Shown here: positions 41,384 through 44,041 of the stretch, one piece after another
How positions within the stretch are numbered: the first letter of the stretch is position 1
How the letters are laid out: every line of letters begins with the position of its first letter
Origin: Escherichia phage N4
Length of the DNA: 64,000 nucleotides
Sequence record: NC_008720.1
Strand: one strand, 5' to 3'
Notes under the pieces: model-generated
Databases searched by the model: none
Told to the model about the DNA's origin: nothing
What the model saw: only the letters and a program-made list of their open reading frames with translations
Position numbers and translations under genes: made by a program

Positions 41384-44041
41384 TTACGTATCTAAATCAA
41401 GCTGCAACGTTATATCTGTAAAGTTGGTAATCATGTTGTTAGACATGTCAGCTATATCATGACCAGTCATAAGAGTACGGCTAAGGAATGAATCCAGTGG
41501 TTCAAATTGTTGGCCTACATTAGTTAGGTTCATTGGGTCAATGTAACCCATACCCTCAGTACCAAACATTTCCTCGTACTTTTCCTGAATGGTTTTCATC
41601 TGGTCACGGTACTCTGCCATAAGTTTCTCTGTCTTTTTGACAGTTTCCATAGCAGAAGCATTGATGTAATCACTTATGCCATTCCCTACAGATGAAGTGA
41701 GTTTAATGATGTTATCTGCTTTCATCATTTCACCCAGCATCGTAGACATGGATGAACCAGTGGATAAAGCTGTACCAACATTCATGGCTACCATAGAGGC
41801 AATAGTAGCAACAATGATTCCAATCTTATCCCCAAGCAGACTAACAGAGACTGTTTGAATAATGGACATCAGAATCATAGCTGCAATGGCATTAGCCACA
41901 GCCCCAACGATAATAGCAGCTAACCCTGCAAAACCTAATGCAGCACCAATAGAAGCAGCAGTACCCATTACCCCAGCACCAGCAGCAGGGGTAAAGAACA
42001 CAGACACCACTACTGCAACAACAACCACTACTACTTTAAAGATGCCAGACTGATACCATTTCTTCTTAACTTTCTTATATGAGTTAAGAACCAGATAACA
42101 ACATGCAGTAGATAACTGAGTACCATTTACCAAAGACATACTACGATAAATGTTGTTATGAAGAGGGATGATAAATCCGGACTCTTCATCATCATTTAGT
42201 GCATCTACACCAGAAATGCTTACAGATTTATTCTTGTAAACATTATTGTTATGGTTCAGGCCATAGACAGAAATCTTCCTCCATGAATTATCCCCATCCT
42301 GCCAATACATTGTTATCTTATCTAGCCTGTAGATAGTAAACCCAACTTTGTCATTACCCTTTTCAGAGTACATAACGGCTTTCTGCATAAGGACTACAGT
42401 ACCTTCATAAGCAAACTTGAGCTGCCCTTTCTTGGCTCCAGAGAATGCTTTACCTGAACCAACTGATTCTTCAATGAAGTTCCAACTAATAGTCATGTTG
42501 TAACGGTATCCACCGTTAGAACGAATATTAATGGATTTAGAAGGTATTGTTGGATATACGGGTCTTTTAGGAGGCTTCCCTATGGGAATATCCCTATTAC
42601 CACTGCGAGATTCCCACCATTCCTGATAAGCATCAAAGTCCCTGTTAGCTTGAGCAAAGCCTTCTACCAAAGCATCCATAGTTGGGTAGTTTGGGTCAGC
42701 AGGCATTGACTGATTCACTAACTGGAAGAATCTGTATATGTACTCTTTAGCTGTATTTTCAGGACTGTTAAGAGAACAACCAAATACAGCATAGATATAC
42801 TGAATATCACCAATATCTTTGTTCTTCTTCAGGTCATCCATAATGTCAGAAATCTTACCCCCTGTAGCCTTCTTAAAGGCTTTCTTACAAAGAGTATATG
42901 TAGAACCAGAAATCCAGTTCTTATCACTACGGATAGGGATGAATGAATAGAACCTGTTATTGGTTGTCTTATTAATAAACAAAGCATCAAGAACGGCATT
43001 GCCACTATTCTGTTTATAAATAAACAGTTGAGGCATACCACCAGCAGACAAAGTAGTAACTACATCTGTATTCTGATAAGACCACGTATGCCCTAAAGTA
43101 TCTGTAGTTACTGTAGTAGTTCTGGTTTCAGTAACCCCACCACCTAAATCAATAACTTCAGTGTTTGTAGTGGAACCAGTGGATACAGTACCAGTCTGTA
43201 CCTGGGTCATTATAGTCTTACGAATAATGATTAAGCCTACTTCACTTGGTTCACGAAATTCTTTCTCGTAAACATCTGAGAAGTTAGTCCAACTAACCTG
43301 TTCTTCTTCAGTATTGGTACTTTCCTCATCAGGTCTACCATCAGAGAATACACTCTTAATATGAGTAACTGTCTTCAAGGTAGCTGACTTAGGAGTATGG
43401 TTCTGAGATACCTGAGTCCATTCAGAAGTAGAAGGTAAGTCATCAGCAGATGATACAGATACAGCAGGGTGAACCACTGGGTCTGCAACACTAGTAGGCT
43501 GTATGTAGTAATAGTTCACATACAGATACATTGCATCCTGACTGTAATTCTTTGGATAAAAGGATAACTCACTGCCATCAGTAGCAGTGAGTACAATCCT
43601 GTCATCATCCATGATGTCTATTTCAAATTCTTCAGTAATACGGTCTGGATAATTCTCATAGAGGAATTTATCAGCCCATTCCTCAAAATCACCAAATCCA
43701 ATCCTACTGCTTTGAACCTGTACCTCATAACCTGCTTTTTGAGGAACCTGCCATTTAACTACTTCAGGGTCTACCTGAGACAGTATTGACAAGTTCCCAT
43801 AAGCAATACCAATTGAAGGGTCATAGTTAGTTGCAGCCCAACCAGGGAATCTACGTAAACGAATACCAGGTCCATTTAAATAAGAGTCAGTGATGGTATC
43901 ACCCATACTAAAGTCAGATTTACTGACGATGTTACCAATCACTGTAGTCTTTAAATAATTTGGACGTTTATGTATATCCCCTGCCAGATTGTAGACAGAG
44001 GATGCTACGTAGATTTTAGTCTTACTGCTAAACAGTCCCAT
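41384..44041 (-). CDS. Virion protein (N4 gp53 position), 885 aa, with long hydrophobic membrane-like segment
   Basis: ATG 44041. About 100 consecutive Val/Ala/Gly/Ile-rich residues near the C-terminus (about nt 41760-42080: ...KVVVVVVAVVVSVFFTPAAGAGVMGTAASIGAALGFAGLAAIIVGAVANAIAAMILM...). Confidence 0.5.
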   Translation of the reverse strand: MGLFSSKTKIYVASSVYNLAGDIHKRPNYLKTTVIGNIVSKSDFSMGDTITDSYLNGPGIRLRRFPGWAATNYDPSIGIAYGNLSILSQVDPEVVKWQVPQKAGYEVQVQSSRIGFGDFEEWADKFLYENYPDRITEEFEIDIMDDDRIVLTATDGSELSFYPKNYSQDAMYLYVNYYYIQPTSVADPVVHPAVSVSSADDLPSTSEWTQVSQNHTPKSATLKTVTHIKSVFSDGRPDEESTNTEEEQVSWTNFSDVYEKEFREPSEVGLIIIRKTIMTQVQTGTVSTGSTTNTEVIDLGGGVTETRTTTVTTDTLGHTWSYQNTDVVTTLSAGGMPQLFIYKQNSGNAVLDALFINKTTNNRFYSFIPIRSDKNWISGSTYTLCKKAFKKATGGKISDIMDDLKKNKDIGDIQYIYAVFGCSLNSPENTAKEYIYRFFQLVNQSMPADPNYPTMDALVEGFAQANRDFDAYQEWWESRSGNRDIPIGKPPKRPVYPTIPSKSINIRSNGGYRYNMTISWNFIEESVGSGKAFSGAKKGQLKFAYEGTVVLMQKAVMYSEKGNDKVGFTIYRLDKITMYWQDGDNSWRKISVYGLNHNNNVYKNKSVSISGVDALNDDEESGFIIPLHNNIYRSMSLVNGTQLSTACCYLVLNSYKKVKKKWYQSGIFKVVVVVVAVVVSVFFTPAAGAGVMGTAASIGAALGFAGLAAIIVGAVANAIAAMILMSIIQTVSVSLLGDKIGIIVATIASMVAMNVGTALSTGSSMSTMLGEMMKADNIIKLTSSVGNGISDYINASAMETVKKTEKLMAEYRDQMKTIQEKYEEMFGTEGMGYIDPMNLTNVGQQFEPLDSFLSRTLMTGHDIADMSNNMITNFTDITLQLDLDT

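Follow-up and report, generated by a model that had tools for sequence, protein, structure and literature searches.

A conserved, charge-free block in the phage N4 tail plug gp53 as a probable sealing and tethering element

The hydrophobic block of Escherichia phage N4 gp53 probably acts within the tail plug as its sealing and tethering element. The stretch is real and strongly conserved, yet it is already explained as the 'hydrophobic knot' of the plug: a sequence-only reading of the 64,000 nucleotides of N4 DNA analyzed here (NC_008720.1; the window) had flagged the most unusual segment in the structural module of N4, which is the one that cryo-EM work of 2025-2026 identified as the cork of the tail-gating complex. 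What we add is the conservation of the block across the family, an analysis that PMC12633501 does not contain.

The 885-aa reading frame appears in the ORF list exactly as it had been described. In the window it lies between the gene for the tail tube and the ejection cassette gp52-gp51-vRNAP:

44045-44944, minus strand: gp54, which forms the tail tube (12-mer); the knot seals its distal opening (ORF; PHROG 2050, virion structural protein; PMC12633501).
41384-44041, minus strand: gp53 coding sequence, 885 aa; tail plug of phage N4 (ORF list; identity to 9yft_FA; PHROG 2220; PMC12633501).
40918-41370, minus strand: gp52, ejection protein and proposed outer-membrane pore, stored above the plug in the tail lumen (ORF; synteny; published role).

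The window protein is 100% identical over aa 1-885 to the chain 'Gp53' of PDB 9YFT (9yft_FA), and it matches PHROG 2220 with 1041 bits over aa 1-884, that is, along its full length. Searches of Pfam, NCBIfam and PHROGs assigned it to no functional family. The order of gp54, gp53 and ejection cassette recurs in vB_Eco_Jura, ZC08 and Roseovarius Plymouth podovirus 1. Homology, gene position, the plug fold and the block with its partner helices all place the protein among the Schitoviridae tail plugs (N4 gp53 / DEV gp74; PHROG 2220). For the neighboring gp51, a lysozyme-like assignment was dropped, the PDB search having given only gp51's own structure.

Bellis et al. 2025 (PMC12633501; PDB 9YFT / EMD-72905) identified gp53 as the N4 tail plug, present in a single copy. 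[quoted passage not shown] The earlier expectation of a virion protein was therefore right, while the idea that it is packaged next to the vRNAP was not, since only the genes adjoin. The receptor-binding sheath protein gp65 holds the beta-rich body (aa ~60-658), which lies outside the tube and has an exterior sheet termed 'feather-shaped'. Six short helices, contributed by residues 29-56 and 670-716, make up a hydrophobic knot free of charges, which plugs the mouth of the gp54 tube like a cork (PMC12633501). The model was built for residues 9-724, and about 160 C-terminal residues, in the lumen, have no resolved density (PMC12633501). The maps show nothing of the C-terminal domain and only half of the block. 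A further cryo-EM study, Zheng et al. 2025 (Structure 33:1250), reportedly likewise assigned gp53 as the N4 tail plug.

The published knot of 9YFT includes the first half of the segment that had been noted. The parts of the protein that concern us here, all on the minus strand, are as follows:

43874-43957, minus strand: N-terminal helices, aa 29-56, knot partners of 670-716 (PMC12633501; predicted helices; weak covariation).
42035-42079, minus strand: basic/aromatic collar, aa 655-669 (YKKVKKKWYQSGIFK), immediately before the block (conservation across 256 homologues).
41783-42037, minus strand: hydrophobic block, aa 669-753, 85 aa (composition, charge-free run, conservation).
41894-42034, minus strand: the part of the block seen by cryo-EM as the 'hydrophobic knot', aa 670-716 (PMC12633501; predicted helices; near-invariant residues).
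41759-41893, minus strand: second half of the block, aa 717-761, in the tail lumen, beyond the resolved model, which ends at 724 (model 9-724; near-invariant residues).
41387-41758, minus strand: C-terminal polar helical region, aa 762-885, in the tail lumen, a proposed 'ripcord' for gp52 (predicted helices; invariant residues; published proposal).

The interval originally flagged, 41760-42080, corresponds to aa 654-761 and had been described as a block of about 100 residues. The block is real but shorter (85 aa). Its composition is dominated by A19 V17 I11 G9, its sole charged residues are K669, D738 and K739, and its longest stretch free of D, E, K, R and H measures 68 aa. No other ORF of at least 100 aa in the window has so long a run (the runner-up has 38 aa), and none of 20,000 shuffled versions of gp53 reached it (mean 24.5 aa, maximum 61 aa). 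We found no DNA tandem repeat, so the block is not a nucleotide-repeat artefact. Drift of a repeat or low-complexity tract was rejected as an explanation on that ground, and because the block is conserved above the rest of the protein and contains specific invariant residues.

The gp53 family comprises at least 1,856 sequence clusters. The block is among the best-conserved parts of the protein, with a mean column identity of 0.67 against 0.55 for the whole, and the charged fraction within it is 0.044. Across 256 homologues, a near-invariant ladder of Gly, Ala and Asn runs through this almost charge-free region: G690, G693, G699, G703, G706, A709 and G713 in the knot half, then N717 (0.97), A720, G737 (0.98), D/E738, K739 and G741 (0.97) in aa 717-761. 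The collar is similarly constrained (K659 0.93, K661 0.86, W662 0.95, Y663 0.94, F668 0.98, K669 0.74), and the C-terminal region has invariant E847, R855 and G860 and a nearly invariant F852. Both knot elements, the charge-free C-terminal block and its N-terminal partner helices, are kept across the 256 homologues. Mutual-information covariation between aa 29-56 and the knot is weak, with the pairs 32-718, 38-697 and 27-698 at z of about 3; the overall signal is dominated by presence or absence of the feather sheet, and signals within the knot are weak.

Structure prediction gave a confident, mostly beta, soluble fold for the N-terminal ~658 aa, in agreement with the soluble N-terminal part of about 650 aa that had been proposed. 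Residues 659-885 are predicted to be all-helical at low confidence, and the block is not predicted as a buried beta-rich core, the outcome that had been named as contradicting a membrane-type segment. Predicted helices in or near the knot span 29-40 and 46-55 on the N-terminal side and 666-682, 693-701 and 707 onward on the other; further helices are predicted at 788-826, 849-856 and 860-878 in the C-terminal region (pLDDT 35-68). With a deeper alignment, AlphaFold2 raised pLDDT to no more than 60-69 at aa 661-680, while elsewhere in the block and in the C-terminal region it was still mostly 35-51, and the block in isolation yielded no confident fold.

The block has the length and apolarity of a bilayer-spanning alpha-helical membrane segment. 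Its 19-residue Kyte-Doolittle means reach 2.68, and the apparent insertion free energy, computed in windows of 17-23 residues, is -0.1 to -1.0 kcal/mol at 667-683, 698-716 and 706-728. The block helices have <H> of 0.69-0.82 and muH of about 0-0.3 (0.69 and 0.01 for helix 707-736); they are non-amphipathic and transmembrane-like.

One explanation for such hydropathy is that gp53 is anchored in the inner membrane of the infected cell, for example for tail-tip assembly, lysis timing or superinfection exclusion, its place in the virion being secondary. Some public records label homologues 'membrane protein', and a preprint recovered gp53 Q98R in a rapid-lysis screen; when the mutant was rebuilt, it failed to reproduce the lysis phenotype (preprint). 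In virions, cryo-EM places the segment within the tail tube and not in lipid, and the Gly/Ala/Asn pattern is co-conserved with the N-terminal helices that shield the block. We consider an inner-membrane anchor very improbable.

The sealing and tethering role would work as follows. The apolar, Gly/Ala-laddered helices would pack tightly on each other and on the tube wall, giving a water- and DNA-tight seal made by hydrophobic contacts alone, which could be removed and put back in place. Once gp65 has engaged NfrA or its glycan, the gp53 body outside the tube would swing sideways and pull out the knot together with the luminal C-terminal ~170 residues. Unplugging would then free the gp52 copies from the lumen, followed by gp51, the vRNAP and the DNA. 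Residues 717-761 and the C-terminal helices match the knot in conservation and for that reason probably interact with gp52 or with the wall of the tube.

Several observations weigh against the sealing role. The resolved part of the block is limited to aa 670-724, and the role of 725-761 and of the C-terminal domain is conjectural. A seal has no obvious need for 85 transmembrane-grade residues in three bilayer-length segments, and it is puzzling that some 85 such residues have been kept across more than 1,800 sequence clusters. The tube lumen of the related phage DEV is reported to be mildly basic rather than hydrophobic. The density of the plug stays on emptied N4 particles (PMC12633501), and the authors favor lateral displacement and re-seating of the plug; as they caution, those plug-bearing particles had released their DNA in vitro and not into a cell, which also limits what they say for the sealing role.

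A second use of the same helices is compatible with the plug role, and we give it a minor but real chance. Once freed beside the outer membrane, the helices, especially 707-761, which lie outside the resolved knot, would insert, and would anchor the tail tip or destabilize the bilayer locally, allowing gp52 to assemble its pore. Three segments of the block score as transmembrane-like (hydropathy, insertion energy, <H>/muH), the collar KKVKKKWY..F.K ahead of the first helix resembles those at membrane interfaces, and N717 is conserved within an apolar helix. Ladders of the small-xxx-small type, a typical feature of membrane helices that associate with one another, also speak for insertion, and an independent preprint describes gp53 as 'predicted to contain TMDs'. 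On the other hand, alpha-helical insertion into an LPS-containing outer membrane is uncommon, and the membrane reading of the block is drawn from prediction. A monomeric plug cannot make an oligomeric pore alone, and gp52 and gp51 are channel-forming in bilayers on their own. The retained density at the tip of emptied particles, with the authors' preference for re-seating, argues against insertion as well.

A precedent for membrane action by a tail-tip segment is phi29 gp9 (PMC6542822). Like the gp53 block, its L loops are apolar, lie at the distal tip of a podophage tail and form part of the closed state, and they have been proposed to act on the membrane after release (PMC6542822). However, phi29 gp9 is a tube protein that forms hexamers, in which the six loops make a helix barrel, while gp53 is a monomeric external cap, and membrane activity is demonstrated for gp9 and putative for gp53. 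We looked for sequence or fold similarity between the two proteins and detected none.

More specifically, aa ~717-761 (with invariant N717, G737, K739 and G741) and the C-terminal helices might be a one-shot membrane-active device: exposed by unplugging at the outer membrane next to the receptor, it would insert and then nucleate the gp52 pore or set its orientation. We give this a rather slim chance; if true, the Schitoviridae plug would serve as the gate and would also be the first element to penetrate a membrane. Whether the region only retains gp52 or also contacts the host membrane matters beyond gp53: the answer would complete the model of how Schitoviridae begin to deliver a 3,500-residue polymerase and their DNA.

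A further reading of the same helices is that the block module is a diverged homologue of the type III secretion (T3SS) translocators (SseC/YopB/PopB, Pfam PF04888), with the same pore-forming mechanism. YopB and SseC have a layout similar to that of gp53, a basic stretch followed by an Ala/Gly/Val/Ile-rich helical hairpin and then polar helices. Three of 25 gp53 family members match PF04888 (17-20 bits, E 6e-4 to 4e-3), and the matches cover the block and the next helix. None of six controls, reversed or locally shuffled, matched SseC even at E<=5, which indicates that the weak match depends on residue order; falling exactly on the block, these sub-threshold matches also count toward insertion of the freed helices. 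The scores lie below the curated gathering cut-off of 30.2, however, and N4 gp53 itself has no match. Using hhalign, we compared the gp53 C-terminal profile with an alignment of 16 YopB/AopB/SctE sequences and with YopB from pCD1 alone: the probabilities were 2.5% and 0.7%, the former covering a polar helix only, so that the hydrophobic regions do not align profile to profile. A search of the PDB with the gp53 profile returned no translocator at E<=5. The hhalign result of 2.5% effectively refutes homology to SseC/YopB, which we find scarcely credible, and leaves an analogy at most. In the same PDB search the Newcastle disease virus fusion protein F0 matched at E 0.6, which we took as chance or compositional.

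With the sealing and tethering role again as the preferred reading, gp53 can be set beside other closures of phage tails. The closest is gp74 of Pseudomonas phage DEV (PDB 9ZE4, 'N4 gp53-like protein'; PMC12892993), which shares the beta-rich globular plug core. It has 740 aa, is without the feather sheet and is ~16% identical to gp53 in structural alignment; it is held by the DEV gp56-gp55-gp54 receptor-binding fibre, whereas gp53 is held by the gp65 sheath. The tail needles of P22 (gp26) and Sf6 perform the same task, sealing the channel after packaging and being displaced at receptor contact (PMC11445570, PMC12892993). They are trimeric coiled-coil fibres inserted by the N-terminal tip, with a fold unrelated to that of gp53. 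To our knowledge, no hydrophobic block of the gp53 kind has been reported in them.

It had also been suggested that gp53 resembles the ejection or channel proteins of podoviruses. This holds in that gp53 belongs to the genome-delivery apparatus and has a helical, transmembrane-like segment by hydropathy, but 9YFT shows it as a tail plug rather than as an ejected or channel-forming protein. Ejection proteins of the T7 gp14-16 type are kept in the particle and lost when the genome is released, as are the channel-forming N4 proteins gp52, gp51 and gp50; for gp53 the literature indicates that it stays.

The feather sheet varies across the family:

43046-43417, minus strand: 'feather' beta-sheet of four long strands on the plug exterior, aa 209-332 (strand prediction).

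Its predicted strands are 209-232, 239-264, 270-300 and 303-332, with pLDDT of about 90. Family members of ~740 aa match the query in two stretches, the larger at ~335-885, and hence appear to be without the sheet. The sheet (aa 209-332) gave no significant structural superposition on aerolysin-type beta-pore-forming toxins.

Finally, the block leaves a mark on the opposite strand. Its codons carry 54% G at position 1 and 48% T and 34% C at position 2, and this bias accounts for the local skew of the plus strand (GC -0.28, AT +0.30). As had been noted, there are antisense ORFs there, the longer one being Ala/Thr/Pro-rich:

41862-42053, plus strand: antisense ORF of 63 aa (A16/T13/P8), judged spurious (opposite strand, contained entirely in the conserved gp53 block).
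41676-41858, plus strand: antisense ORF of 60 aa, judged spurious (ORF list).

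Most probably, the hydrophobic block of gp53 acts as cork and tether in the plug that this protein forms in the N4 tail, a feature already described in the literature and the PDB. The DNA of the window is 98% identical to that of Enquatrovirus phages, and gp53 matches PDB chain 9yft_FA ('Gp53') at 100% identity across all 885 residues; the window is therefore coliphage N4. [quoted passage not shown] (Res Sq 2025; PDB 9YFT; PMC12633501). In their cryo-EM structure gp53 is the plug: a knot of residues 29-56 and 670-716 sits in the mouth of the tail tube (a 12-mer of gp54), most of the protein lies outside the tube, where the receptor-binding sheath protein gp65 holds it with its domains 9-10, and the plug is kept on empty particles; LC-MS also detected gp53 (PMC12633501). 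A further study of N4 (Zheng et al. 2025, Structure 33:1250) is credited with this plug assignment too, and the orthologue gp74 of Pseudomonas phage DEV is likewise a 12:1 plug (PDB 9ZE4; PMC12892993). The sequence-only reading had likened gp53, as a protein packaged next to the vRNAP, to ejection or channel proteins. It was right that this is a virion protein, that it belongs to the delivery apparatus and that its segments are helical and membrane-like, but gp53 is neither ejected nor a channel protein, and the packaging beside the vRNAP was wrong.

The gp53 features are as follows.

41384-44041, minus strand: gp53 coding sequence, 885-aa ORF, coordinates as in the sequence-only reading
41783-42037, minus strand: hydrophobic block, gp53 aa 669-753, 85 residues
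41676-41858: antisense ORF
41862-42053: antisense ORF, Ala/Thr/Pro-rich

A long hydrophobic segment does exist in this ORF, but at 85 residues it is shorter than the approximately 100 first proposed for 41760-42080, an interval that maps to gp53 aa 654-761. The block comprises 19 Ala, 17 Val, 11 Ile and 9 Gly, its charges are limited to K669 and the D738-K739 pair, and it includes a 68-residue stretch free of D, E, K, R and H, the longest uncharged run among window ORFs of at least 100 aa (the second is 38 aa). Shuffling gp53 20,000 times never produced a run of 68 (mean 24.5, maximum 61). We found no DNA-level tandem repeat in the block region. Its codons have 54% G at position 1, and 48% T and 34% C at position 2. 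This bias accounts for the two antisense ORFs, and also for the strand skews at 41800-42099, the strongest local strand asymmetry within 40-46 kb (plus-strand GC skew -0.28, AT skew +0.30).

An exhaustive HMMER search placed 1,856 clusters (50% identity) in the gp53 family at E<=1e-3; a stricter threshold of E<=1e-30 left 644. Using tblastn with aa 645-885, we obtained matches in 208 phage records, and all those inspected were N4-like phages of about 70-77 kb, with hosts from Escherichia to Ruegeria and Rhizobium. Homologue labels in the matched public phage records are inconsistent ('hypothetical protein', 'membrane protein', 'baseplate wedge protein', 'Hoc-like head decoration', 'putative structural protein', 'N4 gp53-like protein'), and none uses 'tail plug'. 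Searches of Pfam and NCBIfam with gp53 returned no family, and PHROGs assigns it to family 2220, function unknown. The gene order (major capsid protein, gp55, gp54, gp53, gp52, gp51, vRNAP) is the same in the annotated relative vB_Eco_Jura, the distant Pseudomonas phage ZC08 and Roseovarius Plymouth podovirus 1.

In a 25-sequence alignment, mean column identity is 0.67 in the block versus 0.55 in the whole protein, and the charged fraction of the block is 0.044; across 256 sequences, the charged fraction at positions 670-725 is 0.00-0.02. The longest uncharged run has a median of 62 aa across homologues (56 aa in ZC08, 51 aa in DEV gp74). Near-invariant positions in the 256 sequences are W662, Y663, F668, G690, G693, G699, G703, G706, A709, G713, N717 (0.97), A720, G737 (0.98), D/E738, K739, G741 and G762. 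Small residues at 699, 703, 706, 709, 713, 717 and 720 form a ladder with a spacing of three or four residues, the spacing required for helices to pack tightly together. Such a Gly/Ala ladder would give a compact apolar bundle that seals through hydrophobic contacts and could be withdrawn and re-seated, while residues 717-885 would extend into the lumen and may retain gp52 there. Bellis et al. propose that receptor binding displaces the plug laterally, and they liken the gp53 C-terminus to a 'ripcord' for gp52 (PMC12633501).

AlphaFold2 gave a confident fold for aa 8-658, with pLDDT of about 90 in the strands of the feather, a four-stranded sheet at aa 209-332. In aa 659-885 it predicted helices at 666-682, 693-701, 707-736, 738-761, 788-826, 849-856 and 860-878. 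Their pLDDT was 27-48 with a 25-sequence alignment; with 80 sequences it lay mostly at 35-51 and peaked at about 69. Since this region is predicted to be helical, albeit at low confidence, the models contain no beta-rich buried core, the structure that the sequence-only reading had named as evidence against membrane helices. Modeled alone, aa 659-885 has no confident fold, as expected if the context of the tube or of a membrane is needed. Covariation signals were weak (695-714 at z 5.3; 716 paired with 692, 702 and 704; N-terminal helix pairs 32-718 and 38-697), and are compatible with a hairpin that the N-terminal helix may contact.

The block is hydrophobic enough for a membrane: Kyte-Doolittle 19-residue means reach 2.68, apparent insertion energies (biological hydrophobicity scale) are negative at windows 667-683, 698-716 and 706-728, and predicted helix 707-736 (<H> 0.69) has a hydrophobic moment of 0.01 and therefore no polar face. 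After withdrawal of the plug, these exposed transmembrane-grade helices might insert in the outer membrane and assist gp52, a role for which the L loops of phi29 gp9 are a precedent. This role is compatible with the cork, but we consider it unlikely: gp53 is monomeric, it remains on emptied particles in vitro, and channel activity needs only gp52 and gp51, each of which forms channels in bilayers. An intracellular role at the inner membrane is a minor and very improbable alternative; a lysis preprint, in which the protein 'is predicted to contain TMDs', reports no lysis phenotype for gp53 Q98R.

Below-threshold matches to PF04888 (SseC, hydrophobic translocators of type III secretion) fell exactly over the block in 3 of 25 family members, two of which are located as follows.

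~41550-42030, window equivalent: SseC-matching homologues P0062 (aa 673-828) and P0082 (aa 665-820)

Native fragments scored 17-20 bits (cut-off 30.2), and none of six reversed or locally shuffled controls matched SseC, even at E<=5; the signal thus rests on residue order, beyond composition alone. For comparison we used YopB from pCD1, with PF04888 membership confirmed, and a 16-member alignment of its family. With hhalign, the gp53 profile gave a probability of 0.7% against YopB alone and 2.5% against the alignment, the latter over a polar helix with the hydrophobic hairpin unaligned, and the profile found no translocator in the PDB. Despite the order-dependent Pfam matches, homology to SseC/YopB is unsupported by hhalign, and we regard this minor alternative as scarcely credible.

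The window's second-longest uncharged run, of 38 aa, is in gp52 (40918-41370, minus strand). It is rich in Gly, Asn, Gln, Thr and Leu, is no more than mildly hydrophobic (Kyte-Doolittle 19-residue means of at most 0.9), and falls in the part that the published pore model calls 'hydrophobic moiety res. 1-68'. Residues 1-359 of gp51 (38973-40907, minus strand) are identical to PDB 11mn_A ('66 kDa protein', 10 chains). Its ZC08 counterpart is labelled 'peptidoglycan hydrolase'; a Pfam search of N4 gp51 found no hydrolase domain, and Bellis et al. deny this activity for the N4 ejection proteins (PMC12633501). The sole other ranked ORFs of at least 100 aa with transmembrane-grade segments are 50823-51347 (minus strand) and 2103-2939 (plus strand), with maximum Kyte-Doolittle 19-residue means of 2.15 and 2.0 and minimum apparent insertion energies of -0.7 and +0.25, respectively. 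Judged against the vB_Eco_Jura annotation, the former lies near the lysis genes.
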